NCBI GenBank assembly: GCA_046759185.1
Contig: JBHIBO010000003.1
Coordinates: 18,865-82,864 of the forward strand
Source: Thermoplasmata archaeon
GTDB taxonomy: Archaea > Thermoplasmatota > Thermoplasmata > RBG-16-68-12 > JAJISG01
Length of the DNA: 64,000 bases
Direction of reading: 5' to 3'
Shown here: positions 14,948 through 37,861 of the stretch, piece after piece
Position numbering within the stretch: position 1 is the stretch's first letter
Layout: each line of letters begins with the position of its first letter
The notes under the pieces: generated by a model
The model's input: only the letters and a program-made list of their open reading frames with translations
What the model was told of the DNA's origin: nothing
Databases searched by the model: none
Program-made: the position numbers and the translations under genes

Positions 14948-15344
14948 GTTTCGACGAAGTCTTCGACGTGAGCGACCGGGTGCGAAGGTTCTGGAAAACG
15001 GGCGTCTGGTTCATGATTGCCGCCGCGCTCGGCAGCGCGGGGATGGCGATGTACATGAGGCTTGTGTCGGCTGTCGATCTATGGCTGAAGCTGCTCTTCG
15101 TCCTCGGAAACAGGGGCATCCTAGGCTGGGCGATCTGGAAGATGAACCTATGGAGAAGGACCGACCGATTGAAGGAGGTCGCCGCGGGGGCATCCTGGCC
15201 CTGCAGGCCGTGTTCGGAATCGCCATTGTAACCCTTCTTGCCGGTCAGCCCTCGTGGTTCTCGTTCATGTACCTGGGGGGAACGTTTCTCGTGTTCGCGA
15301 TGACGCTCTCGGATCTATGGCCGTGGCGCAAGCCGAGTGTCTAA
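14944..15344 (+). CDS. predicted 4-TM membrane protein, interrupted by an apparent -1 frameshift in a G5 run (15186-15190)
   Basis: The frame-1 ORF 14944..15231 (MSFDEVFDV...KEVAAG) and the frame-0 ORF ending at 15344 (GGILALQAVFGIAIVTLLAGQPSWFSFMYLGGTFLVFAMTLSDLW) join into a single roughly 133-aa TM protein if one G is added to GCGGGGGC. Confidence 0.45.
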
Positions 15345-15385
15345 GATCTTTGTGACTTGCGTCGGCTCCGACAACCGAAAGGGTT

Positions 15386-15985: not shown

Positions 15986-16220
15986 AGCTTCGGATTCCGT
16001 AAGACGGCGGCCCCGCGGCACTGAATGCGCTCGCCCGGAAGCATGACGCTCCCCCCTTCCACTCCAGGGTCACCCGCGGTCCTCCAGGAGGCCCGTCATA
16101 GCTAAATAACGGCGCTAGTTCCTCGAAGGGCATCCACGGGCGAGCGTGGGCGTCGTCACCGTCACGCTTTGCGGGCCTATGGGCACCAAGCACGGGGGAC
16201 ACCACGAGAGGAGCGGAAGC

Positions 16221-19758: not shown

Positions 19759-19761
19759 GCT

Positions 19762-20805
19762 ATGAGGGCGGTCGTCTTCAGCGAGCACGGCGGGCTCGAG
19801 AAGCTCCAGTACACGGAGGTGCTACAGCCGGAGACCTCGGCCATGGAGGTCTTGATCCGGGTAAAGGCCTCCGGCTGCAACTACAACGACATATGGGCTC
19901 GAACTGGAATGCCTGGGTTGAAAGTGCCCCTACCCCACATATCGGGCAGCGACGTTTCGGGGGTGGTAGCCGAGGTCGGAGAGGAAGTCTCCAGAGTTAA
20001 CGTGGGAGACGAGGTCCTCATCCATCCAGGAATTTCGTGTAGGAGTTGCGAATACTGCACCTCGGGCAGGGAGTACTTTTGCAGACAGTTTCGGATCTAT
20101 GGATTTCAGACAGGTCCCTTGGAGGGCGGCCACGCGGAATACGCAAAGCTTCCGGAGGCGAATGTGCTTCCCAAGCCGGAGAACCTGACCTTTGAAGAGG
20201 CTGCGGCCCTTCCCCTCGTCCTCCTGACCGTCTGGCATATGCTCGTAACACGGGCCGGGGTCAAACCTGGCCATGACGTCCTGGTCCTGGGTGGCGCCGG
20301 CGGGGTTGGGAGTACGGCGATCCAGGTGGGGAAGCTCTTCGGAGCGCGGGTAATCGCCACGGTCGGAAACGAGGAAAAGCTGGAACTGGCCCGCAAACTC
20401 GGGGCAGACGAGGTAATCAATCACTCGGCGCAGAACATCGCCGAGGAGGTGAGAAAGGCGACCCACAGGCGAGGGGTAGACATCGTCGTGGAACACGTAG
20501 GTCAAGCGACGTGGGAGCAAAGCATGAGCAGCCTCGCCTGGGGTGGTACAATCGTGACATGCGGCGCGACGACGGGGTACGATGCCAGAACGGATCTGAG
20601 GTACCTCTTCAACAAACAGCTTAACCTCTTAGGCTCGCATCAAGGCCGCAAAGCCGAGCTTGTGGAGGCTCTCAGGTTCGTGAAGAGCGGGGAAATAAAA
20701 CCCGTGATCTCGACCGTCCTGCCCTTATCACAAGCCGCGGAAGCGCAGAGGCAGATGGAGCAGAGAGAAGTCATGGGGAAAGTCGTCCTGACCCCCTCAC
20801 CATAG
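19762..20805 (+). CDS. zinc-binding alcohol dehydrogenase / MDR-family oxidoreductase
   Basis: 347 aa. It has structural-zinc Cys motifs (CRSCEYCTSG), a GxGxxG NAD(P) site (VLGGAGGVGSTAIQ), and the typical MDR N-terminus (ISGSDVSGVV). Confidence 0.85.
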   Translation: MRAVVFSEHGGLEKLQYTEVLQPETSAMEVLIRVKASGCNYNDIWARTGMPGLKVPLPHISGSDVSGVVAEVGEEVSRVNVGDEVLIHPGISCRSCEYCTSGREYFCRQFRIYGFQTGPLEGGHAEYAKLPEANVLPKPENLTFEEAAALPLVLLTVWHMLVTRAGVKPGHDVLVLGGAGGVGSTAIQVGKLFGARVIATVGNEEKLELARKLGADEVINHSAQNIAEEVRKATHRRGVDIVVEHVGQATWEQSMSSLAWGGTIVTCGATTGYDARTDLRYLFNKQLNLLGSHQGRKAELVEALRFVKSGEIKPVISTVLPLSQAAEAQRQMEQREVMGKVVLTPSP

Positions 20806-21071: not shown

Positions 21072-21947
21072 ATGCCTGCAAGGTTTGACTACTATGCGCC
21101 TACCTCGCTCAGCGAGGCTGTCGAGCTTTTGGAACGCCACGACGACAAGGCGAGGGTCCTGGCTGGGGGCCAGAGCCTCGTCCCCCTGATGAAGCTCCGG
21201 GTCGGCGAGCCGCTCGGCGTTCTCGTTGATCTCAATCGAATCGAAGACCTGGGATACGTGAAGGAGGAGGATGGTGCCCTCCGCATCGGGGCCCTGGCAC
21301 GCCATCGTGACTTGGAAAACTCGGACATCATCCAAGGTCGTTACCCCCTACTGGCCGACGCCGCGGGGACCATCGGCGACCTCCAGATCCGCAACCTAGG
21401 AACCCCCGCCGGGTCCTTGGCCCATGCCGACCCCGCCTCCGACTGGGGAGCGGCCTTCCTGGCGTTTGAGAGCGAGGTCACCGCCACCTCTGCAAAGGGG
21501 GTTCGGACCATCTCGCTGGATGACTTCTTCGTGGACACCTTCGCCACCGCCTTGGAGCCCGGCGAGGTTCTCACGGAGATTCGGGTTCCCTCTGTAGGGA
21601 ACGGTTCCGGCGGAAGCTATCAGAAGCTCAAGAGGAAGGCGGGGGACTTCGCCACCGTCGGAGTGGCCGCACAGCTGCAGCTCGATGGGGGTGGGACTGT
21701 GAGCCAGGCGAGACTTGCCCTGACGGCGGTGGGAGCGACGCCCTTCCGCGCCCAGGATGGGGAGGACCGCCTGCGGGACGGTCCGGCGGACGAGGCGGCC
21801 GTGGCCGAGGCGGCCGGCCTGGCGGCCCAGGCGGCCGAGCCCACAGACGATCTCCGAGGATCCTCGGAATACAAGCGGGCCATGGTGGAGGTCTTCACCC
21901 GGCGTGCGTTGGAGACCGCGCTGGAAAGGGCGAGAGGAGGATCCTGA
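21072..21947 (+). CDS. Mo-hydroxylase FAD-binding medium subunit (CoxM-like), form-II cluster
   Basis: MPARFDYYAPTSLSEAVELLE...AGGQSLVPLMKLR. This is the FAD-binding PCMH domain. GGAGG RBS lies before the ATG. Confidence 0.85.
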   Translation: MPARFDYYAPTSLSEAVELLERHDDKARVLAGGQSLVPLMKLRVGEPLGVLVDLNRIEDLGYVKEEDGALRIGALARHRDLENSDIIQGRYPLLADAAGTIGDLQIRNLGTPAGSLAHADPASDWGAAFLAFESEVTATSAKGVRTISLDDFFVDTFATALEPGEVLTEIRVPSVGNGSGGSYQKLKRKAGDFATVGVAAQLQLDGGGTVSQARLALTAVGATPFRAQDGEDRLRDGPADEAAVAEAAGLAAQAAEPTDDLRGSSEYKRAMVEVFTRRALETALERARGGS

Positions 21948-21990
21948 TTATGAGCGAAGAGTTTCTTGGCTGGACTGGGAGGGAGAGGTG

Positions 21991-22476
21991 ATGGAGGGAG
22001 AACCGAAGCTGCATCACGTCGCGCTGACCGTAAATGACGAGCGCCGCGAGGGAGACGTCGAGGCCCGTGTCCTACTGGTGGACTTCCTGCGCGACCAGCT
22101 GCGTCTCACGGGCGCCCACGTCGGCTGCGACACAGGCCACTGCGGGGCGTGCACCGTGGTCGTAAACGGTCGCGCGATCAAGGCCTGTTCCATGTTCGCC
22201 GTCCAGGCCGACGGCGCTGAGGTGCTCACCATCGAAGGCCTGGCCTCCGACGGGGAGCTGCATCCGCTTCAGAGGTCCTTCTCGGAGCACCACGGGTTGC
22301 AGTGTGGCTTCTGCACGCCCGGCCTCATCATGACGGCCTACGAACTCTTGGAGCGGAATCCCGATCCCACGGAAGCACAGGTTCGCGAGGGGATATCGGG
22401 CAACATGTGTCGATGCACCGGCTATGTGAACGTCGTGAAGGCCGTCCTTGCGACGGCGGGAGCGAAGGAGGGATAA
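21991..22476 (+). CDS. Mo-hydroxylase [2Fe-2S] small subunit (CoxS-like), form-II cluster
   Basis: Both 2Fe-2S motifs are present: [11 protein letters not shown], and QCGFCTPG...CRCTGY. The ORF was trimmed to ATG at 21991. Confidence 0.85.
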
Positions 22477-22480
22477 GGCG

Positions 22481-24832
22481 ATGGCAGCAGCTGAGAAGTA
22501 CGTGGGAGCGCGTGTCCAGAGAAAAGAGGATGCCCGGTTTGTCACCGGAACGGGCAGCTACGTAGCAGACCTGGCCCTGCCGGGCATGCTCCACGCGGTC
22601 TTCCTGCGAAGCCCCTACGCCCACGCCAAGATCAAGAAGGTCGACGTCGCCGCGGCCCAAAAGCTCCCGGGGGTCGTGGAGGTCTTCACAGGGGAGGACC
22701 TGAAGGACGACATCGGTTCCACCCCCACCGCCTGGGTGATTCCCGATTCGGATTTGAAGACACCACCCTACCAAGCCCTGGCCACGGAACGGGTCCGCTA
22801 CCAGGGCGAAGCCGTGGCCGTCGTGGTGGCAGAGGATCCCGCCATCGGTGCCGATGCCATCGAGCTCATTGACGTAGACTACGAACCCCTTCCGGTGGTC
22901 GTGAACCAGGAGGAGGCCCTCAAGGAGGGAGCGCCCCAGCTCCACGAAGAGGCGCCCGGCAACCAGGCCTTCAAATGGGTCCTGCCGGGCGGGGACGTGG
23001 ACGCGGCCTTCGAGGAGGCCGACGTCGTGGTGGAGCAGCGCCTCGTCAACCAGAGGCTCCAGCCCTCGGCCATGGAGCCGCGAGCCGCCCTGGCCCAGTG
23101 GGACGAGGTGGACGAGAAGCTCACGCTGTGGGTGACCTCGCAGAACCCCCACATTCATCGTCTCATCCTGGCCGCGTTTGTCCTCGGGATTCCCGAGAAC
23201 AAACTTCGAGTCATCGCCCCGGACGTGGGAGGCGGCTTTGGGAGCAAGATCCCGATCTACCCATGGGAAGCCGTCGTATCTCATCTCGCCAGAAAGTTGG
23301 GCCGCCCCGTCAAGTGGGTGGAGAGCCGGACGGAGAATTACCAAGCGACGACTCACGGTCGGGACATGGTCCAGGACGTCGAGATGGCCGCAAAGAAGGA
23401 CGGTACAATCCTCGGCATCAAGATCAAGGCCTTCGCGAATATGGGGGCCTATCTGTCCACGGCCGCGCCCGGAATTCCGACGATTCTCTTCGGGTTCATT
23501 ATCAGCGGTGCCTACACCATGAAGGCCACCCATGCCGAGGTAATCGGTGTGTTCACCAACACGACCCCTACGGATGCCTACCGGGGGGCGGGCCGTCCCG
23601 AGGCCATGTTCGCGGTGGAGCGGATGGTAGACATCCTCGCCCGGAAGCTGGGCATGGACCCCGTGGAGATCCGTCGGAAGAACTTCGTTTCTCCGGACGC
23701 CTTCCCGTACCAGATTCCCACAGGCCTGACTTACGACAGCGGGAATTACCCCGGGACCCTGGCAAAGGCCCTGAAGATCTTGGACTACGACGCATTCCGA
23801 GAGGAGCAGGCGAAGGCGCGCGAGGAGGGCCGTCTCCTTGGCATCGGTTTCTCCACCTACCTGGAGTTGTGCGGCTTGGCCCCCTCTCCGGTTTCCACCG
23901 GCACCGGTTTCCAGGGAGGCCTCTGGGGCAGCTCCGTCTGTCGGATGCTTCCCACGGGCAAGGTCTCCGTATTCACAGGGGCGCACCCCCACGGGCAGGG
24001 AGAGGAGACAACCTTCGCCCAGATCGCCGCGGACGAGCTCGGCGTGCCCGTGGAGGACGTGGAAATCGTCCACGGGGACACGGACATGACCCCCATGGGC
24101 ATGGGGACCTACGGCAGCCGCACGAACCCGGTTGAGGGCGGGTCGGTCGCCCTCTCGGCCCGCAAGGTGGTGGCCAAGGCGAAGAGGATCGCGGCCCACC
24201 TCTTGGAGGCGCGCACCGAAGACATGGCCTTCGAGGGGGGGAAGTTCTTCGTGAAAGGGGCCCCTGACAAGGCCAAGACCATTCAGGAAGTCGCTTTCGC
24301 GGCCTACATGGCTCAGAGCATGCCCGAAGGGGTGGAGCCCATTCTGGAGGCCACCACCTTCTACGATCCCACGAACTTCGTCTATCCCTTTGGTGCCCAC
24401 ATCTGCACGGTGGAGGTGGACTCCGAGACCGGCGAGGTGGAGATCCTACGATACGTGGCCGTGGACGACTGCGGGACGATCATCAACCCCATGATCGTGG
24501 AGGGCCAGGTCCACGGGGGCGTTCTCCAAGGCGTGGCCCAGGCCCTCTGGGAGGAAGCCCGCTACGACGAGGACGGGAACCTGCTGACTGGCAGTTTCAC
24601 GGAATACCTGGTGCCCACGGCGCTGGAGAGTCCGAAGATCGAGACGGACCATACGGTCACGCCGTCCCCGCACAACCCCCTGGGGGCGAAGGGCATCGGC
24701 GAGACGGGAACCATCGCCTCGTCCGAGGCCGTCATCAACGCCATCGTGGACGCCCTGGAGCCTTATGGAGTGACCCACGTAGACATGCCCGCCACCCCCG
24801 AGAAGCTGTGGCGCCTCATCCAAGAAACGTAG
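22481..24832 (+). CDS. Mo-hydroxylase large subunit, CoxL-like form II
   Basis: Trimmed to MAAAEKYVG at 22481. The active-site loop is NTTPTDAYRGAGRPEAMF (form II). Confidence 0.9.
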   Translation: MAAAEKYVGARVQRKEDARFVTGTGSYVADLALPGMLHAVFLRSPYAHAKIKKVDVAAAQKLPGVVEVFTGEDLKDDIGSTPTAWVIPDSDLKTPPYQALATERVRYQGEAVAVVVAEDPAIGADAIELIDVDYEPLPVVVNQEEALKEGAPQLHEEAPGNQAFKWVLPGGDVDAAFEEADVVVEQRLVNQRLQPSAMEPRAALAQWDEVDEKLTLWVTSQNPHIHRLILAAFVLGIPENKLRVIAPDVGGGFGSKIPIYPWEAVVSHLARKLGRPVKWVESRTENYQATTHGRDMVQDVEMAAKKDGTILGIKIKAFANMGAYLSTAAPGIPTILFGFIISGAYTMKATHAEVIGVFTNTTPTDAYRGAGRPEAMFAVERMVDILARKLGMDPVEIRRKNFVSPDAFPYQIPTGLTYDSGNYPGTLAKALKILDYDAFREEQAKAREEGRLLGIGFSTYLELCGLAPSPVSTGTGFQGGLWGSSVCRMLPTGKVSVFTGAHPHGQGEETTFAQIAADELGVPVEDVEIVHGDTDMTPMGMGTYGSRTNPVEGGSVALSARKVVAKAKRIAAHLLEARTEDMAFEGGKFFVKGAPDKAKTIQEVAFAAYMAQSMPEGVEPILEATTFYDPTNFVYPFGAHICTVEVDSETGEVEILRYVAVDDCGTIINPMIVEGQVHGGVLQGVAQALWEEARYDEDGNLLTGSFTEYLVPTALESPKIETDHTVTPSPHNPLGAKGIGETGTIASSEAVINAIVDALEPYGVTHVDMPATPEKLWRLIQET

Positions 24833-24836
24833 TTTC

Positions 24837-26099
24837 TCACCCCGTGGAGGCGCCGCTCACGTCTCCCTCGGGACCCGTCACGCCGAGCGAAGCCACGGGC
24901 GCTCTCGGCGGTCGTGGGTACAGGGCATGGACGGGTCGTCCGAAGTAGCGGGCGTATTGATCCCGGCGTGCCAAGGCCGTCGGCGGTACCAACAGGTCCA
25001 CGTGGGGAAGGGCCTGCCTCATCCCCGCCACCTCGGCACGGAAGTCAGGACGCTCGGCGTAGGGGTTCATCCAGAGGAGAAGGAAGGCGCGGCGCCGGAG
25101 GGACGCCATCTGGTCCTCCAAGAGGTGCAGGCTGCCCACGTCCCACCCGTCGCTCAGGATGAGCACGACGGTCCGCCCGTCGACCGTGGACCCGTGGTGA
25201 CGCTGAAACTCCGCGAGGCACCGCCCGATCTGCGTGCCTCCCCCCGCATGCGCCAGCTTCTCAGACACATAGCGGACGGCCTCACGATAAGGCCGGCCGC
25301 GCAGGACGGCCGTCAGGGGCCAGAGCTCCGTGCTGAAGGCGTAGAGCCGGGCGGAGGGAATCGCTCGAAGGAGGGCGTACACGATGCCAAGGAGGAGGGG
25401 CCCGTGTCCCTCCATGCTCCCGCTCACGTCCCACAGAACGACCAAACGGGTCCGCTGTAGTTTCCGGCGATGCCGCCGGACGGCGAGCCACTCGCCCCCG
25501 GATCGGAGGCTAGCCCGTGCCGTCCGCGGGAAGTCCACGGCCCCTCGGCGGCTCGCCACGCGCCTTCGCCCCTCAACCGTCGCCGCCCACCGCCGGAATC
25601 GCCGGGCCAATCGTTTCATCGTGTCGAGCTCGCGTCGACTTGGCATCTCGAGGTCTCTGGGGCCTGGAGGCGCTTCGGGACTGTAGACGAGAAGGCGCAA
25701 GCGATCGACACTCCAGGGAACTCGATCCCGACCCGCCCGTACACGCCCGCGCTGGGTACTCCAGGCCTCCTCGACGCTGCCGGGCTGTTGGGGTACGGGA
25801 GGTCGGGCGGGTGGCGCCCTGCTTTCTCCCGGCAAGACGCCCGGCATGCCGGACCGGGACCAATACTCTTCGAAGGCGTTCTCAAAGACAGGGAAGTCTT
25901 CCGCCCGCTTGACCAAGGTCGTCCGACAGGCGAGGTAGAACTCTCGTCTCCGCAACCGGTTCACGTGGTCGAGAGCCCTCGCGAGGTCCAGCTCTTCGCC
26001 GAGCCCCACGGGCATGCCTCGTGCCCGCAGCAGGCCAAAGAACCCGGCCAGGCGGCGGGAGAGGCCGCCACCGTCCGCTGGCACCTGCCCGGTCCTCAT
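24837..26099 (-). CDS. coxE: VWA-domain CODH maturation protein CoxE
   Basis: 420 aa. The VWA MIDAS motif is LVVLWDVSGSM, and it pairs with the upstream MoxR ATPase. Confidence 0.85.
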   Translation of the reverse strand: MRTGQVPADGGGLSRRLAGFFGLLRARGMPVGLGEELDLARALDHVNRLRRREFYLACRTTLVKRAEDFPVFENAFEEYWSRSGMPGVLPGESRAPPARPPVPQQPGSVEEAWSTQRGRVRAGRDRVPWSVDRLRLLVYSPEAPPGPRDLEMPSRRELDTMKRLARRFRRWAATVEGRRRVASRRGAVDFPRTARASLRSGGEWLAVRRHRRKLQRTRLVVLWDVSGSMEGHGPLLLGIVYALLRAIPSARLYAFSTELWPLTAVLRGRPYREAVRYVSEKLAHAGGGTQIGRCLAEFQRHHGSTVDGRTVVLILSDGWDVGSLHLLEDQMASLRRRAFLLLWMNPYAERPDFRAEVAGMRQALPHVDLLVPPTALARRDQYARYFGRPVHALYPRPPRAPVASLGVTGPEGDVSGASTG

Positions 26100-27028
26100 G
26101 ACCTCAACAACAGGTCGACCTTCTCCTCGAGCAGTCGCAGGTCCTCTGCCTCTTTCGCCACAAAGCCGAGGGTCTCGAGCAGGGTCTTCTTGTCCATGTG
26201 TTCAACCCCGAGGGCGAGCAGCGCGGCCACCCAGTCCAGGGTCTCCGAGATGCCAGGTCTCTTCAGGACCTCCTCTTCCGTTCGGACGCGTTGGACAAAG
26301 GACAGGACCTCCTCGGCGAGACCCTCGTCGAGTTCCGGGACCCGACGACGGAGGATCGTGAGCTCCTTCTCCCACGAGGGGTAGTCGATGTACAGGTACA
26401 GACAGCGTCGCTTGAGGGCATCGCTCAGCTCCCGCGTCCGGTTCGACGTGATGATGACGAAGGGGACCCGCTCCGCCCGAAAGGTCCCGATTTCCGGGAT
26501 GGTCACCTGGAACTCCGAGAGGAACTCCAGGAGAAGCCCCTCGAACTCCTCGTCCGCTCGGTCGATTTCGTCGATGAGGAGGGTGGGGGGTTTGGGGCCG
26601 TCGTGGTTTAGGGCCTTAAGGAGGGGGCGCCGGAGAAGGAACTTCTCGCTGAAAATCTCCGCCTCCAGCTCCGAGGGATCCTTCTGTTTCTCCTGCAGGC
26701 GGATCGCCAGCAGTTGCTTGGGGTAGTTCCATTCGTATAGGGTGGATTCGGCATCCAAGCCCTCGTAGCACTGGAGGCGGATGAGGTCCGTGTCGAGGGC
26801 CTCGGAGAGGGCGCGGGCGATGTCCGTCTTTCCACACCCCGGTTCGCCTTCTACGAGGAGCGGCTTGCCGAGCTTCATCGAGAGGTAGACCGCCATGGCG
26901 ATCGACCGGTCGGCAACGTACTCGCTTTTCTCAAAGGCCTCAATGACCTCCTCGGGCTTGCTAAAGGGAGCTTCGTTCGCCACTTGCTGGTCCGCCATGG
27001 GTGTTCTCAGGGGTTCAGATGCTGCCAT
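26096..27028 (-). CDS. coxD: MoxR-like AAA+ ATPase CoxD
   Basis: Walker A VEGEPGCGKTD and Walker B LLIDEIDRA. It overlaps coxE by 4 nt. Confidence 0.85.
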   Translation of the reverse strand: MAASEPLRTPMADQQVANEAPFSKPEEVIEAFEKSEYVADRSIAMAVYLSMKLGKPLLVEGEPGCGKTDIARALSEALDTDLIRLQCYEGLDAESTLYEWNYPKQLLAIRLQEKQKDPSELEAEIFSEKFLLRRPLLKALNHDGPKPPTLLIDEIDRADEEFEGLLLEFLSEFQVTIPEIGTFRAERVPFVIITSNRTRELSDALKRRCLYLYIDYPSWEKELTILRRRVPELDEGLAEEVLSFVQRVRTEEEVLKRPGISETLDWVAALLALGVEHMDKKTLLETLGFVAKEAEDLRLLEEKVDLLLRS

Positions 27029-27074
27029 CTGATGAAAGCCCTTTCGTTTGGAGCGCTGTGGACGACTTCCGTGC

Positions 27075-28052
27075 CTAGGTCCTCTCCGGTTGCACGGGAA
27101 CGGGCTTGGCTCCCTTCAGGTTCCGCCGAGGGAACTCCTCGATGTAGGCCCCGTAGTAGGGAACGCGATTGGCGACTACGCGGCGAAAGGCCGCACGAAT
27201 CCCCGCGTCCGACAGTCCCCGGAGCGGGACGAGATCGTCACTCCGGTTGAGGCAGCCTTTGAGTCTGCCATCATGCGTCAAGCGAATCCGGTGGCAGTTC
27301 TCGCAGAAGGCTTGGTTGTACACGGGGTCGACGATCTCCACGCGGGCCCCCTTGAGGCAGTAAATGCGCCGACTATGAGCCCGGCGGATGTCGATCCGGT
27401 CGGCCTGTTCGGCCAGCCAGGCCGCCACCCCGTCGATGTCCACCATCCAGTCCTCGTGCCCCGTGAGCTCGGGCATGTATTGGATGAGTTGGAGGACGAG
27501 GCCGCCTCGCCCCTTCTCCACGAACTCCAACATCTTCGGGATCTGGGGTAGGGTGTGCTTCATCACGACCATGTTCAGTTTGACGGGAGTGAGGCCCACC
27601 TCGAGAGCCGCGGCGATGCCCTTTACGACAGGGTGGATGTCTGCTCCGCGGATGGCCCTGAACACCTCGGCGTGGATGCTGTCGATGGAGACGTTGACTC
27701 GGGTCAGTCCCGCCTCCCGGAGACCCACAGCCCGGGAGGCGAGCATGGATCCGTTTGTGGTGAGGGATACATTGGGAATGTGGGCCGCCCCCCGGGCCAC
27801 TATCTCCTCCAGGTCGGACCGCACCATGGCCTCCCCGCCCGTGATGTGGAGACTCGTGAAGCCGAAATCCTTCGCGATGCGGATGACGCGTTCGATTTCC
27901 TCGGGCGCCAACTCCTCGTCGTGGGGGTCCCCCGGTCGCCTGATGGCCCCGAGGCCCTCGTTGTGGCAGTAGATGCAGGAAAAGTTGCACCGCCTGGTGA
28001 CCGAGACCCGAAGGTCCGTGGCCTCGCGGCCGAACCGGTCGACGAGGACCAT
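27075..28052 (-). CDS. moaA: GTP 3',8-cyclase MoaA (radical SAM)
   Basis: CNFSCIYCH radical-SAM Cys triad near the N-terminus and a C-terminal CENCHRIRLTHDGRLKGCL second cluster. It is upstream of coxDE on the same strand. Confidence 0.9.
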   Translation of the reverse strand: MVLVDRFGREATDLRVSVTRRCNFSCIYCHNEGLGAIRRPGDPHDEELAPEEIERVIRIAKDFGFTSLHITGGEAMVRSDLEEIVARGAAHIPNVSLTTNGSMLASRAVGLREAGLTRVNVSIDSIHAEVFRAIRGADIHPVVKGIAAALEVGLTPVKLNMVVMKHTLPQIPKMLEFVEKGRGGLVLQLIQYMPELTGHEDWMVDIDGVAAWLAEQADRIDIRRAHSRRIYCLKGARVEIVDPVYNQAFCENCHRIRLTHDGRLKGCLNRSDDLVPLRGLSDAGIRAAFRRVVANRVPYYGAYIEEFPRRNLKGAKPVPVQPERT

Positions 28053-28152
28053 GTCGGAGATAGGCGCCTCCTAAGTAAGAATCTAACGGGTTTACTCAAC
28101 CGCGGCGCCCAGGAGTCAGCCCTTTAATAGACAGCAGGAGTGGCCGTGGTCC

Positions 28153-29361
28153 GTGGGGGAGCCCAGGAGAGGGTGGGCGGTCGCGTTCAACCGGAACGAG
28201 GTCGCTGGGGCCTTCGGCGACATCGGGACCGACCTCCCGCTCATCCTCGCCCTCATCGCGATCAACGGTCTCGACGCCACGAGTGCCTTCGTGATGTTTG
28301 GGGTTTTCCAGATACTGTCGGCCCTCCGTTACGGCCTTCCCATGCCCGTGCAGCCTCTGAAGGCCATGGCCGCCATTATGATCGCGACGGCCGCCCGTCC
28401 GGAACTTCTCTTCGGCGGAGGCCTCGTGATCGGGCTCACCATTGGCATTCTCGGCTTGACCGGTGCCATCACTCGCATTCATGCCCTCCTCCCCGCAGGA
28501 GTTGTCCGCGGCATCCAGCTTGGCCTGGGCCTAACCCTGATGCTGGTGGCTTTCGGCTTCATTCTGGGGGATCCGGGCGCCCCTCTGCCAGACCGCATTC
28601 CTGGGATGATCGCCGCCTTTGTCGGGATCCTTGCCGTCCTCTTCCTCGGGCGGAGCACCCGATTCCCCCCTGCCCTCCTCCTCATCGTCGGCGGAATCGG
28701 CCTGGCGGCCTTCCAGGGCCTGGACTTTGGTGCCCTGGCGGGGGGCATCGGGTTTCGGCTGCCGGTGCTCTATCTTCCCGAGTTTCTTGCCGATCTGATC
28801 CCCGGGGCTCGCGTCCTCAGCCTCAATGACATCGCTGAAGGGGGACTCGTACTGGCGCTCCCCCAGATTCCACTCTCCATCGCCAACTCCATCATCGCCA
28901 CGGCCTTCCTGGTGCGGGACTACTTCCCGCGGAGGACAGAGATTACGCCCCGCCGCATCTCCCTCACCTACGCGGCCATGAACCTGACGGGCCCCTTCTT
29001 CGGCGCCATCCCGGCCTGCCATGGTTCGGGGGGATTGGCCGGCCACCACCGGTTTGGCGCCCGGACGGGGGGCTCCGTGATCATCTACGGCACCATCTTC
29101 CTGGTCCTGGGGCTCTTTTTCGGAGGCGTCATCTTCGAGGCGGTCAAGGTCTTCCCCTTCCCGGTTCTGGGAGCCCTTCTGCTCTTCGAAGGGTTCGCCC
29201 TCACGAAACTCGTCACAAAGGTGAAGGACAGTCGACCCGACCTCCTCGTCGCCCTACTGGTCGGGGTGCTGGTCATCGGCGTGCCCTTTGGCTTCGTCGT
29301 GGGCATCCTCGGAGGGACGGCCGTCTACTTCCTCTTGGTTCGAAAGCGGATCTTCTTGTGA
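28153..29361 (+). CDS. MOT1-family (MFS-type) molybdate transporter
   Basis: Polytopic membrane protein. It carries the two MOT1 signature blocks PMPVQPLKAMAAIMIA and FGAIPACHGSGGLAGHHRFGARTGG. It is divergent from moaA, with a TATA-like CTTTAATAG just upstream (GTG start, likely leaderless). Confidence 0.7.
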   Translation: MGEPRRGWAVAFNRNEVAGAFGDIGTDLPLILALIAINGLDATSAFVMFGVFQILSALRYGLPMPVQPLKAMAAIMIATAARPELLFGGGLVIGLTIGILGLTGAITRIHALLPAGVVRGIQLGLGLTLMLVAFGFILGDPGAPLPDRIPGMIAAFVGILAVLFLGRSTRFPPALLLIVGGIGLAAFQGLDFGALAGGIGFRLPVLYLPEFLADLIPGARVLSLNDIAEGGLVLALPQIPLSIANSIIATAFLVRDYFPRRTEITPRRISLTYAAMNLTGPFFGAIPACHGSGGLAGHHRFGARTGGSVIIYGTIFLVLGLFFGGVIFEAVKVFPFPVLGALLLFEGFALTKLVTKVKDSRPDLLVALLVGVLVIGVPFGFVVGILGGTAVYFLLVRKRIFL

Positions 29362-29435
29362 AGCCTTCCTGGGGTCAAAGGCTTAAGGGGTTCTCGGGCT
29401 ACTCTCAAGCGTTCAGCCTACCGAGGCATCCAACC

Positions 29436-29951
29436 ATGAGTGTGGAGGAGCACAGGGCGCGGGCGCCCAAGCACCTCGCGGTCGGCGTCATCACGGCCAG
29501 CAATACGCGGACGGAGGAGACGGATGACTCGGGCCAATACGCCCAGGAGGCCCTCCGGGACGCAGGCCACAAGGTCGCCTTCTACGCGGTCGTCAGGGAC
29601 GATCCCAGGGAAATTCGGGAGGCTCTCGATGCCGCCCTCCCCCAGGCGTCGGTCGTGATCGTGAGCGGGGGCACGGGTCTCTCCCCGACGGACGTCACCA
29701 TCGAGACCATCGCCCCTCTCCTCCAGAAGGAAATCGATGGGTTCGGGGAAATCTTCCGCGCCTTGAGCTACGAAGAGATTGGCACCCCGGCGATGTTGAG
29801 TCGCGCCACCGCTGGGGTGATCGACGGGAAGCTCGTAGCCTGCTTGCCGGGCTCACCTGAGGCCGTGCGCCTGGCTATGGAAGCGCTCCTACTCCCCGAG
29901 CTAGGTCACATCGTCGAACAGATCACCAGTGGTCCCCACGGCCACCCCTAG
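29436..29951 (+). CDS. moaB: molybdopterin adenylyltransferase MogA/MoaB family
   Basis: Trimmed to MSVEEHRARAPKH. It has the GGTGLSPTDVT motif of the MoaB/MogA fold. Confidence 0.8.
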   Translation: MSVEEHRARAPKHLAVGVITASNTRTEETDDSGQYAQEALRDAGHKVAFYAVVRDDPREIREALDAALPQASVVIVSGGTGLSPTDVTIETIAPLLQKEIDGFGEIFRALSYEEIGTPAMLSRATAGVIDGKLVACLPGSPEAVRLAMEALLLPELGHIVEQITSGPHGHP

Positions 29952-29998
29952 GCAACCGGACTTCGCAAGGGGACGCCTCAAGCCCCCGGGACTTCCTC

Positions 29999-30433
29999 TC
30001 ACTCGAAGAGGCCCCGTACACACGCGAAGAACTCCTTCACCTTCTTCTCCGCCGTGGACTCGATCATCCGAGAACCGACGCTGGCGAGCTTCCCCACGAG
30101 GCGGGCTTCTGCGTTCCATCGCATTTCGGTCCCCCGGGCCGTCTTGATGAGGACGACGACCGAGTCCACGTCTACCGCACTGCCTCGTCCCGTCCCGTGG
30201 GCCTTCAGGCGGGCCCGGGTCGGCCTGTCCTCCTCCACGAGCTGGACCGTGAAATCGAACTTGCCTTTGATGAAGGAGACTCCGGCCTTCACCACAGCCC
30301 GGAAGTGCGTGGGACTGTGCACCTCCAGGAGCTGCAGATCGGGCATACATGGCGCCAGTTTCCGGGGGTCAATGAAGGTGTCCCAAACCTCCTCTACGGG
30401 GGCTTCCACGGCGAAGGTTCCCTGGAAATCCAT
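29999..30433 (-). CDS. CoxG-like SRPBCC protein (CODH subunit G family)
   Basis: 144 aa. It is a paralog of the ORF at 35726, sharing FxGTF...KxHGxGRGSAVDVD...TARGTEMRW. Confidence 0.8.
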   Translation of the reverse strand: MDFQGTFAVEAPVEEVWDTFIDPRKLAPCMPDLQLLEVHSPTHFRAVVKAGVSFIKGKFDFTVQLVEEDRPTRARLKAHGTGRGSAVDVDSVVVLIKTARGTEMRWNAEARLVGKLASVGSRMIESTAEKKVKEFFACVRGLFE

Positions 30434-30586
30434 GATGACCGTCCTCCCACCGAAGGGGACCGGGGTTGGTCCCGAAACGCTCCGACCCCCGCCCGCAATC
30501 TTAGTCAGAGGGGGGCCCGATTAAAAACCTGCGGCTGGGACCGCTCCCGGGTTTGTACTGTCTCATGCCCCTTTTTCCACCTGGGA

Positions 30587-30620
30587 GTTGCGCCTATCCC
30601 GCGTGAGGTTGCGCCTATCC
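30587..30620 (+). promoter_or_regulatory. tandem direct repeat GTTGCGCCTATCC (2 copies, 21-bp period), candidate regulator-binding site
   Basis: Exact 13-mer at 30587-30599 and at 30608-30620. It lies about 40 bp from a TATA-like ggaTAGTATAAA (30655-30666; on the minus strand this reads as a consensus archaeal TTTATA box) in the 500-bp gap between xdhC and the coxG paralog. Confidence 0.3.
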
Positions 30621-30941
30621 GGGGGCAGGTGGAGGTTATCAGTTATTATTCTGAGGATAGTATAAATGTACCCCTTCCATCTTATCCTCATGTCTCGGAA
30701 AGTGACGGAATATGAGCCCGGGAAGATGACCGCTTCGAAGTCCCGGAGAGGCCGAGTCGCGGCCGTCCTGGGTGTCCTGAGCGCCATGGTGCGCGGAAGC
30801 CGCGCCCGGAGGATTCCCAGGGTGGCGGACGGGTTCACCGTTCCCCAGGGCGCCCGGATGGGTCCCCCGCTGGGCCTCGCGGTGCAGGCCGGCGATCTCA
30901 GCCTCGTCCGGTAGTCGGAATCCACCCGACGCGAAGTGGCC

Positions 30942-31802
30942 CTACCCCGGGGCCGCCTTGGGCGCCTCTGTCTTGCTCCCCTTCCCCGGAAGGCGCCTCC
31001 CGTATTTTGTGGCCACAACCTCTGCCATGATGCTCAAGGCGAGTTCCCCGGGCGTGGTCGCTCCCATGTCGATCCCGATGGGGGTGCGCACCCGGCGGAG
31101 GAACGCCTGGTCCACGCCCAGGTCGGCCAACGCCTTCATGTCGTGGGCGATGCGGTCGCGGCTGGCGAGAAGGCCCACGTACCGGACGGGCGCCTCGGCC
31201 AGGGCGGCCAGCACGGTGACGTCCCGGGCCCCCTTCGTCAGCACAACGACGGAATCCCGCTTCGTCCATTCAAACGTCGTCATATCGAACTCCATGTCCT
31301 CGATGAGGACATCGGGCTGGCTCTCCAGAACGGGCTTGTGGTCGATGACCACGACTTCCATGTCCAGGAGCTTTCCCAGCTCTACGAGGTGGTCTTCCAA
31401 TGGGTCCCGACCCCCCTCAGCCACAAGGATGAGCCGGTCGGGTGGCAGGTACGGTTCGACGTAAATCTCCATCACCCCTCCGCAATTCGTCTCCACGTGA
31501 ATCTCGTCGCGCGTCTGGTTCGTGACGGTGCCGCGAACGGCGGTTTCTACGTCCTCGAGGTAGACCTTGACGAGGCGAGGCTCCCCCGTCTCCATCGTCT
31601 CTAGCGCGACCTCGACGATGGGCCCATCGGGACAGGCTCCGCCCAGGGTTCCGAAGGCCACCTCCTGATTCTCGGAGATGATCATTTTGAATCCCGGCTT
31701 GCCGAGGGAAGAGCCCTCGACGCCCACGACGGTGGCGACGGAGAACGGCTTCCGGGCCGCCACCAGACGATTCATGTTTCGGGCGAAGCCGTACTCGTCC
31801 AT
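30942..31802 (-). CDS. XdhC/CoxF-family molybdenum-cofactor insertion chaperone
   Basis: It has the XdhC_CoxI N-terminal domain (KPFSVATVVGVEGSSLGKPGFKMII) and the XdhC Rossmann-like C-terminal domain (RLILVAEGG..., VRYVGLLASRDR). It was trimmed from 31844 to the ATG at 31802. Confidence 0.8.
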   Translation of the reverse strand: MDEYGFARNMNRLVAARKPFSVATVVGVEGSSLGKPGFKMIISENQEVAFGTLGGACPDGPIVEVALETMETGEPRLVKVYLEDVETAVRGTVTNQTRDEIHVETNCGGVMEIYVEPYLPPDRLILVAEGGRDPLEDHLVELGKLLDMEVVVIDHKPVLESQPDVLIEDMEFDMTTFEWTKRDSVVVLTKGARDVTVLAALAEAPVRYVGLLASRDRIAHDMKALADLGVDQAFLRRVRTPIGIDMGATTPGELALSIMAEVVATKYGRRLPGKGSKTEAPKAAPG

Positions 31803-31886
31803 GAGCCCCGATTCTAGCGACGGCCTCGTCTTAATCCTTTCCACCGGCCGAAAGGAGGAGGGAATTCCGAACGGTTGCTGGAAAGT

Positions 31887-31894
31887 CTTTTATC
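31887..31894 (+). promoter_or_regulatory. putative TATA box (CTTTTATC) of the form-I coxMSL operon
   Basis: AT-rich motif 41-48 nt upstream of the GTG start at 31935. The geometry matches the form-II cluster promoter. Confidence 0.4.
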
Positions 31895-31934
31895 CGAACC
31901 CCCTTTTAGGCGAGCCTCACGGGGGACAAGTATC

Positions 31935-32807
31935 GTGATTCCGCCTCAATTCGAGTATTTTGCGCCCTCTTCGGTCGATGAGGCCGTCGAGCTCTTGGAA
32001 CGATATGATGGCGAGGCCAAGGTCCTCGCCGGAGGAATGAGCCTGATCCCGATCCTCAAGCTCCGACTGGCGGAGCCTGCGGCCCTGGTGGACATCGGTC
32101 GCATCGAGGGCCTCTCGTACATACGGGAGGAGGACGGGTGGCTTCGCATCGGCGCGGGTACCGTGCTGAGCGACCTGCACGATTCGGACTTGGTGCGGGA
32201 GAAGTACCCCATCTTCCATGACGCCGCCTCGGTCATCGCCGACCCGCTGGTGGACAACATGGGCACGGTGGGAGGCAACCTCGCCCACGCCGATCCCGCC
32301 AACGACCTCCCGGCCTGCATGCTCGTCATGGGGGCCCAGGTCGTCGTCCAAGGACCGAAGGGTTCCCGGACGATTCCCGTCGGGGAGTTCTTCGTCGATA
32401 CGTTCGAGACCGCCCTTGAGGACGACGAGATCCTCACCGAGGTCCAGGTTCCCACGTCCCAGGCTCGCCAAGGGAACGCCTACATGAAGATCGAGAAGCG
32501 GGCCGGGGACTTCTCCATCGCCGCCGTGGCGGCCAACGTCGTCCTGAATGGGAACGGAACAGTGGGGAGCGCGGGGATTGGCCTCACCAATGCCGGGCCG
32601 ACCCCTTTCTTGGCGGAGGAGGCCTCGAACCACTTGGCTGGGGGGAGTCCGGATGAGGCGACTCTCGCCCGGGCGGCCGAGCTAGCGGAGGAGGCATCCA
32701 ACCCGGTTTCCGACCTCCGAGGACCCGCGGAGTACAAGCGGGCCATGGTCGGCGTCCTCACGCGCAGGACCGTAGGGAAAGCTCTCGAGCGGGCGAGAGG
32801 TGGATAG
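31935..32807 (+). CDS. coxM: CO dehydrogenase FAD-binding medium subunit
   Basis: A GTG start gives [22 protein letters not shown], the canonical CoxM N-terminus. The FAD-binding domain is conserved with the cluster at 21072. Confidence 0.85.
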
Positions 32808-33335
32808 CATGGCGGTCGCAGAGCGAGAGGCGGGCGAGGGCGGCGTCCCTCCCACGTATCCCATCACGGTTTCTGTGAATGGCACCGAATACGAGGCCAC
32901 CGTGGAGGGACGGACTCTCCTCGTCCACTTCCTTCGGGACATCCTGGGTCTCACGGGGACGCACATCGGTTGTGACACGACGAATTGCGGAGCGTGCACC
33001 GTCCTCCTCGACGGAAGGGCGGTGAAGTCGTGCACGATCCTCGCCGTCCAGGCGGACGCCCGCGAGGTGCAGACCGTGGAAGGCCTGGAGACGGACACGC
33101 TCCATCCCATTCAGGAGGCCTTCGTGGAGGAGCACGGCCTCCAGTGTGGCTTCTGCACGCCGGGGATGATGATGACGTCCGTGGCCCTCCTTGGGAAGAA
33201 TCCGAACCCGACGGAGGACGAGATCCGCCACGGCATCGCCGGGAACCTGTGCCGGTGCACGGGCTACGTGAACATCGTGAAGTCCGTCCAGTTCGCCGCG
33301 AAGAAGCTTCGAGAGGATGGCCAGGGAGGTGACGC

Positions 33336-33339
<4 letters not shown>
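32800..33339 (+). CDS. coxS: CO dehydrogenase [2Fe-2S] small subunit
   Basis: [11 protein letters not shown] and QCGFCTPG...CRCTGY motifs. The start may be at 32809 (MAVAERE). It overlaps coxM and coxL. Confidence 0.85.
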
Positions 33340-35669
<2,330 letters not shown>

Positions 35670-35725
35670 CGGCCATGCCAGGTCGCCTGAAACGCCGATT
35701 CGAAGGTCGACGGTAGGGAAGTGAG

Positions 35726-36166
35726 ATGGAGTTCGAGGGCACTTTCTCCACAACCGCGGGGATCGAGAAGGTCTGGAGCACCTTCTTTGATCCGCAGGGG
35801 ATGAAGCCCTGCGTCCCCGACTTGGAGCTCATTGAGATCTTCGACCCGATGCACCACCGGCTGGTGTTCAAGGTCGGTCTCTCCTTCATGAAGGGCAGTT
35901 TCGATGTGGACGTCAGGTTGCGGGACGTCGCCATGCCCACCCACGCCCGGGTCAAGGCCCATGGGAGGGGGCAAGGCAGCGCCGTCGACGTCGACGCCGT
36001 GGTGGACCTCGCCAAGACGGCGGACGGCACGGAGATGCGTTGGAAGGCCGATGCCCACATCGTCGGGAAGCTCGCGAACGTCGCGACCCGTCTCCTGGAT
36101 TCCACCGTGAAGAAGCGCATCAACGAATTCCTCGAATGTGGCCGCGCCCGCCTCGAAGGAGAGTAA
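35726..36166 (+). CDS. coxG: CoxG (SRPBCC) protein
   Basis: 146 aa starting MEFEGTFSTTAGIEKVWSTFFDPQG...KAHGRGQGSAVDVD. It is immediately downstream of coxL. Confidence 0.8.
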   Translation: MEFEGTFSTTAGIEKVWSTFFDPQGMKPCVPDLELIEIFDPMHHRLVFKVGLSFMKGSFDVDVRLRDVAMPTHARVKAHGRGQGSAVDVDAVVDLAKTADGTEMRWKADAHIVGKLANVATRLLDSTVKKRINEFLECGRARLEGE

Positions 36167-36202
36167 GCGTCCCCTCCTTGCGCGTCTGCGGGTTCCCGAG
36201 TC

Positions 36203-37861
36203 CTATGCGACGAACGACGCCGGTTCCTTGACGAAGCGAGTCTGGCAGCCCTCGGAGCAGAAGTAGTACGTCGATCCCTCGTGCTCGGCGTGCAAGGAGG
36301 AGGCTGGGACGACGGTCATGCCGCAGACGACGTCCATGGCCGTCTCACTCACGGCCGGAGTCGCTTGCAGGCCGGCCGAGCTCGGGACCGACCGATGACG
36401 CACCTCGGTGATCTCGGCCATGATGCTGAGGGCAATTTCCTCCTGTGTCTCGGCAGCCAGGTCGAGGCCGGCTGGGTTGCGGAGTCGTCCGAGGGCGTCC
36501 TCGCCGAGCCCCTCGTCTCGGAGGCTCTCGATCAGGGCATTCGCCCGCCGACGACTCGCCACTAGGCCCACGTAAGCCGCAGGGGAACCGAGCAGCTGAC
36601 GCACAGCCGTCTCGTCGTATCGGCCCATGGAAGCCACCACGGCGAAGGTGGAACGTGTTGCGGCCGCCGCCAACGCCTCCACGTCCCCGATGACCACATC
36701 CGCGTCTGGCTGCTTCTCCTGTGTGACTCCCAAGGCCGCGACGACCACACGGAAGCCCAAGAGGTGGCCGAGAACGGCGAGCGCCTGACCCAAGGGCGAC
36801 TCACCGACGATCAGGAGCTGGGGCGTGGGGTTGTTGGGCTCCAGGAAGATCTCCATTTCCCCACCGCTCTCGCACACCATAGGGTGTTGGGTCACTCCCT
36901 CTCGAGGAGGGGTTCTAGCCGGGTCGGGGGAGAAGCTGACGAGGCGAGGGATGCCGTCTTCCAGGGCCGTGAGGGCCTCGGCGACGACGATGGACTGGGA
37001 GCAGGCGCCGCCGATCCAGCCCGTCATCTCGCCGCCTTGCCGAATGACGGCCTTGAACCCCGGCTTCCCCGAGGTGGGTCGAACGGCACGCACGACCGTC
37101 GCGAGGACGAAGGGCTCTCCGCGTCGCCTGAGTTCCTGGGCCAGGTCCACGGGGTCGTCGGCGATCGAGCGTCCGAAGTGGGATAAACCCTGGGTGACCG
37201 CGGGCAGGTGGCCCTCACCCTCCTGATGGAGCTCCAAGGCCAAGGTCTCCAGCGCCTCCCCCTCCTCCAAATCGTGTGCGACCCGTCCAAGCTGCTCTTC
37301 CGTATCGATGTCCAGCAGGACGCCGGGATCGGGTACGGGGACCTCGACGATCTCGCCCTCGTAGTTACCGAAGATGCTACGACAGCCCCGGTCTCCCGTG
37401 ATCCCGCGTACGTCGCCGAAAACGGAGCGATCGAGGAGGACGGGATTGCCACGAACGCCTTGGAAGGTGGGGATGAGGACGGGCGCACCTGTGGCCTTCC
37501 ACTCCTTGCCCAATGTGTCGAGAGTTTCCGCCTGGAGGAAGGGCTGGTCTCCGAGCACGATCAAAACGCTCTCGGCCCCCGACGACAGGGATCGGATCCC
37601 CGCCCGGATGGAGGTGCTCATCCCCTCTGGGTAACGCTCGTTGACGACCACATTCGCGCCGTCGAGGGAGACCTCCTCGCGGATCCGGTCAGCCTCACTG
37701 CCAAGAACCACGACGACTTCCTCAGCCGAGGAGCCTTGTACGGACTCGAGCACCCGCTCGAGGAGCTTCTGCCCTCCCACCTCCAACAGCGGCTTAGGGC
37801 GCCCCATGCGCGAAGAGGTTCCAGCGGCCAGGACGATCGCGGAAATCACGTGACGATCCAC
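36203..37861 (-). CDS. tri-domain fusion: MocA-like molybdenum cofactor cytidylyltransferase + XdhC/CoxI chaperone + C-terminal YHS/TRASH metal-binding domain
   Basis: N-terminus: ISAIVLAAGTSSRMGRPKPLL (MobA/MocA NTP-transferase). Middle: PFVLATVVRAVRPTSGKPGFKAV plus QLLIVGESPLGQALAVLGHLLGFRVVV (XdhC N- and C-terminal domains). C-terminus: DVVCGMTVVPASSLHAEHEGSTYYFCSEGCQTRF (YHS). It is one uninterrupted 552-aa ORF, with a GTG start at 37861 or 37849. Confidence 0.8.
   Translation of the reverse strand: MDRHVISAIVLAAGTSSRMGRPKPLLEVGGQKLLERVLESVQGSSAEEVVVVLGSEADRIREEVSLDGANVVVNERYPEGMSTSIRAGIRSLSSGAESVLIVLGDQPFLQAETLDTLGKEWKATGAPVLIPTFQGVRGNPVLLDRSVFGDVRGITGDRGCRSIFGNYEGEIVEVPVPDPGVLLDIDTEEQLGRVAHDLEEGEALETLALELHQEGEGHLPAVTQGLSHFGRSIADDPVDLAQELRRRGEPFVLATVVRAVRPTSGKPGFKAVIRQGGEMTGWIGGACSQSIVVAEALTALEDGIPRLVSFSPDPARTPPREGVTQHPMVCESGGEMEIFLEPNNPTPQLLIVGESPLGQALAVLGHLLGFRVVVAALGVTQEKQPDADVVIGDVEALAAAATRSTFAVVASMGRYDETAVRQLLGSPAAYVGLVASRRRANALIESLRDEGLGEDALGRLRNPAGLDLAAETQEEIALSIMAEITEVRHRSVPSSAGLQATPAVSETAMDVVCGMTVVPASSLHAEHEGSTYYFCSEGCQTRFVKEPASFVA

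Follow-up and report, generated by a model that had tools for sequence, protein, structure and literature searches.

A Thermoplasmata form-I CO dehydrogenase gene neighbourhood with a MocA-CoxF-YHS fusion, a MOT1-family permease and AYRGAGR paralogues

Aerobic CO oxidation is a major sink of atmospheric CO, and the question raised by a 17-kb run of molybdenum (Mo) genes on contig JBHIBO010000003.1 of an uncultured, metagenome-assembled Thermoplasmata archaeon is which enzyme it encodes and how much of the machinery for assembling that enzyme's active site lies beside it. In the 64-kb stretch of DNA that was analysed (hereafter, the window), genes were called from a listing of open reading frames (ORFs) and their translations, followed by Pfam and NCBIfam scans, and each of the 15 consecutive genes at 21072-37861 proved to be Mo-related, every gene named in a first-pass annotation of this “Mo/CO dehydrogenase island” being recovered in the order it had given. 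Taken together, these genes probably encode a complete aerobic form-I [MoCu] CO dehydrogenase (CODH) and much of its active-site assembly, beside a paralogous Mo hydroxylase unable to bind copper; gene identities, family memberships, conserved ligands, synteny and phylogeny are what was observed at the locus. Its core is a standard form-I cox cluster and mostly ordinary, and all of the cluster proteins are already present in public databases under generic names; what sets it apart from the standard is a MocA-CoxF-YHS fusion, a MOT1-moaB gene pair, the scattering of its genes over alternating units, and a second coxMSL-like set with the loop AYRGAGR in the order M-S-L (21072-24832), joined by an orphan L gene.

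The form-I genes coxM (31935-32807; FAD subunit, PF00941 174.1 bits, PF03450 76.1 bits), coxS (32800-33339; iron-sulfur subunit, PF01799 115.1 bits, PF00111) and coxL (33336-35669) follow one another on the plus strand in the order M-S-L (31935-35669), with overlapping stop and start codons. The large subunit, CoxL1, carries the loop AYRCSFR and scores 1208.2 bits against TIGR02416, for which the curated equivalog cut-off is 991.15, and its alignment with Oligotropha CoxL (1n5w_B; 1041.8 bits) keeps the Cys388 loop, Gln240 and Glu763, the scores against quinoline oxidoreductase and a nicotine-pathway dehydrogenase in the PDB (neither of which was in the tree) being 485 and 388 bits, respectively. 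In a neighbour-joining tree of L subunits (23 sequences, 761 columns, 100 bootstraps, rooted on XdhB and PaoC), all AYRCSFR sequences, including the Oligotropha, Thermomicrobium and Natronorubrum CoxL, fall into a single clade in 100/100 bootstraps. The first-pass assignment of the AYRCSFR copy to form I is thus borne out by the clade and by TIGR02416, and the subunit is, as judged by its sequence, a true form-I CoxL. Within this clade the Thermoplasmata proteins are monophyletic (100/100 bootstraps) and stand beside Chloroflexota-type rather than haloarchaeal sequences, the window CoxL being nearer the Thermomicrobium type than the haloarchaeal one. Downstream of coxL lies coxG (35726-36166, plus strand; PF06240 92.3 bits), a putative quinone shuttle for CODH (role from PMC12202499). 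The likeness to coxMSLDEFG of Oligotropha (Afipia) carboxidovorans pHCG3 covers the M-S-L order, the AYRCSFR loop, CoxD, CoxE, CoxF and CoxG; unlike in pHCG3, however, the accessory genes of the window are spread over about seven transcription units of alternating orientation, moaA, moaB and the MOT1 permease gene are embedded among them, and coxB, coxC, coxH and coxK are absent.

A three-domain protein, putatively for maturation, is encoded 36 bp from coxG, within the form-I cox cluster, at 36203-37861 on the minus strand, and is, according to Pfam, composed of a MobA-like NTP transferase (PF12804, 141 bits), the two XdhC domains XdhC_CoxI (PF02625, 63.5 bits) and XdhC_C (PF13478, 96.7 bits), and a C-terminal YHS/TRASH domain (PF04945, 37.2 bits vs a cut-off of 30.3). 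It is 100% identical to MFQ5907536.1, whose length of 548 aa in the NCBI annotation is consistent with a GTG start at 37849. The XdhC part is of the CoxF type (42% identity and 155 bits to pHCG3 CoxF, 62 bits to CoxI), the match of the stand-alone XdhC-family Moco (molybdenum cofactor) chaperone of the cluster, which has no YHS domain (30942-31802, minus strand; PF13478 87.8 bits, PF02625 58.6 bits), to the same CoxF being weaker (87 bits). While pHCG3 CoxF has neither the N-terminal MocA nor the C-terminal YHS domain, the NTP transferase and both XdhC domains recall E. coli MocA and Rhodobacter XdhC, which cytidylylate and chaperone Moco for xanthine-oxidase-family enzymes as separate proteins; in the window both are on one polypeptide, along with the putatively metal-binding YHS domain. 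Across the 20 fusion homologues aligned, neither the conserved cysteines of the XdhC N-domain nor the YHS ligand set D510-x2-C513-x21-C535-x3-C539 (20/20) vary, the D-x2-C...C-x3-C pattern of the latter being that of the copper-responsive YHS domain described in PMC4626032.

The fusion has at least 836 homologues. Of the 120 top-ranked ones listed, almost every one shares its architecture and measures about 550 aa, and those with names come from Thermoplasmata or Methanobacteriota metagenome-assembled genomes (MAGs), the bacterial version being a two-domain XdhC-YHS protein. A scan of the fusion alignment, with one genome per species, gave 419 loci, of which 80 were kept; in these, an AYRCSFR coxL accompanies the fusion in at least 34 archaeal species genomes (Thermoplasmata-labelled, mostly from soil and peat), and it lies no more than 5 kb away in 20 of the 24 loci having at least 5 kb of sequence on both sides. 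With so many species genomes coupling form-I coxL to the fusion, CO consumption by an abundant group of uncultured archaea may have been overlooked; a marine survey has called archaeal Mo-CODH scarce, its form-I sequences from Thermoplasmatota amounting to two, mentioned in passing. Thermomicrobium roseum and Natronorubrum bangense likewise have an XdhC-YHS protein in their cox clusters, directly after coxL, with a separate MocA-like nucleotidyltransferase gene nearby instead of the fused domain; the haloarchaeal cluster of N. bangense additionally holds moeA, coxG, a MoxR ATPase and a VWA protein, and neither cluster has a MOT1 permease. Such XdhC-YHS genes directly downstream of coxL can also be seen in Actinomycetota MAGs (the examples from T. 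roseum, N. bangense and these MAGs are at 7962-8972 in L167, 7974-9113 in L168 and 10001-10945 in L061; here and below, L-numbers denote related loci or contigs compared with the window, and P-numbers aligned protein homologues), and RefSeq labels the protein only as “XdhC family protein”. CoxF has been proposed to supply copper together with CoxE (PMC4240915), and the position of a YHS-bearing CoxF right after coxL in both Thermomicrobium and haloarchaea suggests a copper-delivery role for it. No report tying YHS to XdhC/CoxF and CODH was found in the literature searched, and a predicted copper-binding domain on the CoxF chaperone bears on the route, described as unresolved, by which copper reaches the buried Mo-S-Cu site (PMC4240915).

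By analogy with characterised homologues, from which transport, cofactor chemistry, copper delivery, CO oxidation and quinone transfer are all extrapolated here, the products of the cluster might be arranged into one pathway. Molybdate would be imported by the MOT1-family permease, after which MoaA would perform the first step of Moco synthesis and the MoaB-type protein a late one. The MocA domain of the fusion would then add CMP, giving the cytosine dinucleotide cofactor of this enzyme family, and the fused CoxF-type XdhC domain would hold and protect it, while sulfuration and copper insertion would be driven by CoxD (AAA+) and CoxE (VWA), the C-terminal YHS site of the fusion supplying or positioning the copper. 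The finished CoxMSL would oxidise CO, with CoxG passing the electrons on to the membrane quinone. Of the two Moco-synthesis genes, moaA (27075-28052, minus strand; GTP 3',8-cyclase) passes the archaeal MoaA model TIGR02668 moaA_archaeal (330.1 bits vs 325.25), and the moaB/mogA-type gene (29436-29951, plus strand, with its start corrected to 29436; PF00994 119 bits) passes TIGR00177 (132.5 bits vs 85.35), remaining under the equivalog cut-off of TIGR02667 (155.4 bits vs 222.4).

Which enzyme the maturation factors CoxD and CoxE serve is a part of this pathway that admits a different interpretation. The pair, a MoxR-type AAA+ ATPase (coxD, 26096-27028, minus strand; AAA_5/AAA matches) beside a VWA_CoxE protein (coxE, 24837-26099, minus strand; PF05762 VWA_CoxE 170.9 bits), is 51% and 31% identical, respectively, to its pHCG3 counterparts, and genetics has defined CoxD, CoxE and CoxF as the factors that insert S and Cu (PMC4240915). 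Downstream of moaA, with which they form a minus-strand unit convergent to coxL2, the L gene of the AYRGAGR set, coxD and coxE share 4 bp. It had been remarked initially that coxDE sit beside this set rather than beside the form-I one, and by position they do (only 4 bp separate coxL2 from coxE), but they are on the opposite strand, and in deeper Thermoplasmata relatives such as L008 (layout xdhC-coxM2-S2-L2 > fusion > < coxG-L1-S1-M1-coxE-coxD), they are contiguous and co-directional with form-I coxMSL. A doubtful alternative, yet one with some points to its credit, has CoxD and CoxE (and perhaps the CoxG paralogue and the stand-alone XdhC) working for the AYRGAGR enzyme instead of, or besides, the form-I one: coxE abuts coxL2, the form-I genes of L060 have decayed while coxD/coxE remain intact beside a coxL2-type gene, and the stand-alone xdhC of L008 stands at the head of coxM2-S2-L2. 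What speaks against it, apart from the convergent orientation and the shared unit with moaA, is the single direction of coxD-coxE-coxM1-S1-L1-coxG in L008, the finding that in most other related Thermoplasmata loci coxD/E and moaA adjoin the form-I set (with neither MOT1 nor moaB in between, and no AYRGAGR gene in reach), and the disappearance of coxD/E along with coxL1 and coxG from L039, where an AYRGAGR orphan is retained; moreover, the characterised role of CoxD/E is assembly of the Cu-S-Mo site, which is impossible in an AYRGAGR enzyme. Loss patterns as such are equivocal, L039 having lost coxDE together with form-I coxL and L060 having lost form I and kept coxDE. CoxD and CoxE probably belong with the form-I enzyme, and their position next to the AYRGAGR set is, going by gene arrangement in the relatives, a local rearrangement. 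The stand-alone xdhC had also been considered as a part of the AYRGAGR set, as its placement in L008 would have it, and this was dropped, the gene being present in the form-I-only loci L017 and L033 as well. The coxG paralogue (29999-30433, minus strand; SRPBCC lipid/quinone-binding fold, PF06240 107.9 bits) is 55% identical to the coxG at 35726.

The permease gene (28153-29361, plus strand), a putative molybdate importer, is next in order. Its product, 100% identical to NCBI MFQ5907527.1, matches PF16983 at 171.4 bits (cut-off 30) in two stretches and no SulP/Sulfate_transp or other Pfam family at E≤0.001, so that the Pfam run made as a check upholds the first-pass assignment to MOT1 rather than SulP. 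The motifs of MOT1 are said to have been given by Tejada-Jimenez in 2007 as PxPVQPxK and FGxxPxCHGxGGLAxxxxFGxRxG; across 16 homologues aligned here PMPVQPLK and PxCHGxGGxxGHxxFGARTGG are invariant, the transporter itself reading PMPVQPLKA and PACHGSGGLAGHHRFGARTGG, with the core residues invariant in all 16. It therefore shares the Pfam family (171 bits) and both motifs with plant, algal and fungal MOT1, unlike which it has a prokaryotic host and a gene placed between Moco-synthesis genes. The initial label of a “eukaryote-type” MOT1 is misleading nonetheless, with 5072 proteins, from bacterial and archaeal genomes and metagenomes, matching at E≤1e-10 out of 8000 candidates that were scored (those with names include Hymenobacter, Verrucomicrobiae, Bacteroidota and one labelled Caldarchaeum). 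Published comparative genomics places MOT1 in eukaryotes only and has WtpABC as the commonest archaeal molybdate system, which also corrects the earlier statement that ModABC is the usual one; that MOT1 is rare inside a cox cluster did hold, since among the fusion loci only those of the closest relatives, L001, L002, L005 and L039, have it. At 28780-28818 a 13-residue insertion, EFLADLIPGARVL, is absent from 15 other aligned homologues and shared by the two closest relatives (P0002 and P0003), which makes it lineage-specific rather than a sequencing error.

It seems unlikely, if less than fanciful, that this permease carries sulfate, tungstate or some other oxyanion and that its place between moaA and moaB is incidental. 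The NCBI name, “putative sulfate/molybdate transporter”, is hedged; in about 80% of the MOT1 loci sampled no Mo gene could be detected up to 7 kb away; the Hymenobacter homologue lies in an unrelated context; and no characterised prokaryotic member was found in the literature searched. Set against this, PF16983 is the sole family matched, both motifs are invariant, and MOT1 and moaA diverge from a common 100-bp promoter region, with moaB following 71 bp downstream of MOT1. Furthermore, in unrelated lineages, MOT1 homologues are found within Moco-synthesis clusters, as in L084 (moeA-moaCB-moaE-mobA | MOT1-moaA-moaD), or, in another case, near a ModA-like binding protein, and of 80 metagenome MOT1 loci searched with tblastn, 16 have a Moco or ModA-like gene no further than 7 kb away, i.e., about 20% vs the few percent expected of a random gene (a rough estimate with no matched control behind it). 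Molybdate thus stays the favoured substrate, and a linkage of MOT1 to Moco genes in several unrelated prokaryotic lineages matters the more as comparative-genomic studies of Mo uptake have not considered these homologues.

Besides the hedged name of the permease and the Mo-free surroundings of most of its homologues, several other findings weigh against the proposed assembly of an active form-I enzyme by this cluster. Firstly, moaC, moaD/E and moeA were not found in the window, so that the cluster is not self-sufficient and the remaining steps of Moco synthesis would be encoded elsewhere in the genome. Secondly, the MocA part of the fusion reaches 163.4 bits with TIGR03310 (model positions 1-184 of 188), falling short of the equivalog cut-off of 186.45; this N-terminal domain would work like MocA and is assigned at the domain level. 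Thirdly, Oligotropha CoxF is functional with no YHS domain, and YHS is consequently not essential for every form-I enzyme. Lastly, the form-I trait looks dispensable, as the close relatives L002, L039 and L060 have lost or damaged their form-I coxL. A bolder and decidedly more tentative proposition would be that CoxF-type XdhC with YHS is a general copper-delivery factor of [MoCu] CODH, the YHS domain being one that the alphaproteobacterial model organism may simply happen to lack, and that the MOT1-family permease is a genuine prokaryotic molybdate importer. If that were true, a single Thermoplasmata polypeptide would combine the tasks of making the cytosine dinucleotide cofactor, holding it and delivering the copper, while a prokaryotic MOT1 importer would contradict the eukaryote-only surveys and could be what serves a part of the prokaryotes that use Mo yet have “no known transporter”.

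The AYRGAGR proteins are encoded on the plus strand by a coxM-like gene for the FAD subunit (21072-21947; PF00941 166.7 bits, PF03450 90 bits, 90% identity to the L001 orthologue), a coxS-like gene for the 2x[2Fe-2S] subunit (21991-22476, with its start corrected to 21991, the ATG of MEGEPKL; PF01799 115.6 bits, PF00111) and coxL2 for the Mo subunit (22481-24832), and also by the orphan coxL3 (9357-11681, plus strand), a third coxL-like gene that lacks M and S genes of its own and lies outside the 17-kb region. A six-frame motif scan of the window placed AYRGAGR at 23576 and 10461, and AYRCSFR at 34413, and, as had been claimed at the outset, the AYRGAGR copies cannot hold Cu, the copper-ligand cysteine being replaced by glycine. 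The “form-II” label given to them initially fares only partly well. Form II is defined by the AYRGAGR loop and the gene order S-L-M (PMC7645674, PMC13203968), an order also seen in the closest plasmid-borne homologues, those of Halorientalis and Pseudosulfitobacter. The loop agrees with the label and the tree leans towards it, the AYRGAGR clade appearing in 73/100 bootstraps with the Thermoplasmata copies as a subclade of their own, sister to S-L-M references (two only), and coxL2 being 47-53% identical to canonical form-II coxSLM proteins of roseobacters and Halorientalis. The order in the window, in contrast, is M-S-L, one copy is an orphan, and the set is consequently called form-II-like here rather than form II.

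That the AYRGAGR enzymes are low-affinity CO dehydrogenases, which would give the cluster two or three CO-oxidising enzymes, is improbable. In its favour, CoxL has no closer paralogues than these (coxL2 is 47% identical to CoxL1 and 63% to coxL3), the top NCBIfam model for coxL2 is CO dehydrogenase (for coxL3 it is the alpha subunit of glyceraldehyde dehydrogenase), and form-II function is described in the literature as unresolved. However, besides having the copper ligand replaced, coxL2 and coxL3 score 833 and 682 bits with TIGR02416, under the curated cut-off of 991; form-II-only isolates have been published as often lacking CO uptake; and the upstream genes suit a different route. At 12572-20805, immediately upstream of the AYRGAGR coxMSL, there are three AMP-binding acetyl/acyl-CoA-synthetase-like genes and a Zn alcohol dehydrogenase, and L001 likewise has an AMP-binding gene upstream of its AYRGAGR set. 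Such neighbours hint at an alcohol-aldehyde-acid-acyl-CoA route with the Mo enzyme as a putative aldehyde oxidoreductase. A substrate other than CO, perhaps an aldehyde, is the most likely one for the AYRGAGR enzyme. An identity as glyceraldehyde dehydrogenase was considered and rejected, all three subunits scoring just under the NCBIfam cut-offs (glyceraldDH_alpha 759 bits for coxL2 and 721 for coxL3 vs 790); these models do not discriminate, as the form-I M and S subunits score similarly. Upstream of coxE, coxMSL2 is found in the window and in L001, and a coxL3-type gene in L002, where the coxL3 orthologue is directly beside coxE, so that about 13 kb (the three acyl-CoA synthetases, the alcohol dehydrogenase and coxMSL2) was either inserted in the window or deleted in L002.

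Seen across relatives, the region is, by its synteny and composition, a vertically inherited Thermoplasmata gene neighbourhood rather than a recently acquired island: the order coxE-coxD-moaA | MOT1-moaB | coxG'-xdhC | coxMSLG | fusion is held in L001, L002 and L005, and its base composition is not deviant. A recently acquired mobile genomic island is accordingly about the least credible explanation. In its favour, the affinity of the Thermoplasmata form-I CoxL to Chloroflexota-type bacterial sequences points to an old transfer from bacteria; against it, the G+C content of the cluster (0.63-0.67) is no different from the rest of the window (~64% throughout), no tRNA integration site, integrase or flanking repeat was found around it, proteins encoded in the syntenic MAGs are 75-90% identical to those of the window, and the Thermoplasmata CoxL are monophyletic. 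No tRNA (ARAGORN), Rfam match at gathering thresholds or Moco riboswitch was detected anywhere in the window.

Damage to the form-I genes takes several shapes among the close relatives. In L002 (15205-15900), CoxL residues 32-572 are deleted internally and the fusion is split; in L039 (10001-12622), coxL1, coxG, coxDE and the fusion C-terminus are gone; and in L060 (8638-10270), form I is reduced to a coxM remnant. These are either real trait losses or artefacts of MAG/Logan assembly. In L001 (GCA_046759985.1), a gene for an 841-aa CLIPPER-domain protein (13558-16083) is inserted between xdhC and form-I coxM, and the divergent xdhC/coxM promoter region would thus appear to tolerate insertions. 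A 4-kb contig binned as “Nitrospinota bacterium” (L057, JBHIBA010000382.1) carries an AYRCSFR coxL along with a fusion C-terminus 87% identical to that of the window and is most likely a mis-binned Thermoplasmata contig.

Apart from the orphan coxL3, the genes flanking 21072-37861 are not Mo-related and comprise acyl-CoA-synthetase-like genes, a Zn alcohol dehydrogenase, citrate synthase, a CoA-transferase, an MFS transporter, aRF1, ArgRS, aconitase and a blue copper protein. The last of these, of the plastocyanin/azurin type, is encoded 16 kb downstream at 53633-54403 (minus strand) and is in keeping with an archaeon that respires aerobically and makes use of copper.

A stretch of 508 bp separating the coxG paralogue from xdhC (30434-30941) has no annotated gene, and within it a conserved non-coding element of about 125 nt (30570-30694) is near-invariant in the window, L002, L005 and L039, and absent from L001. 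It contains a direct repeat, GTTGCGCCTATCC, in two copies (30587 and 30608) 21 bp apart, with GTTGnnCnTATCC in both. A TATA-like ATAGTATAAAT is present too, and there are flanking inverted repeats (CCACCTG/CAGGTGG). In the 64-kb window, the exact 9-mer GCGCCTATC is found three times vs 0.32 expected (three copies were reached in 0/100 shuffles), each time in intergenic DNA of the cluster, the third copy (28059-28067) being in the divergent promoter region of moaA and MOT1; the enrichment is confined to this exact 9-mer core, the 13-mer GTTGCGCCTATCC alone not being significant at two mismatches. Outside the window, a relaxed-pattern search located the repeat only in L002 and L064. A regulator might bind to the element, or it might act as a structured leader. 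An Arg-rich ORF of 74 aa (30690-30914, plus strand) begins about 20 nt past the TATA-like box; it is open in L002 and partly so in L001, with weak similarity (VLxAMxRG, VVVP, DLxL). This ORF might represent a small leaderless gene or an antisense transcript that reaches the 3' end of xdhC, or else be an artefact of the high G+C content.

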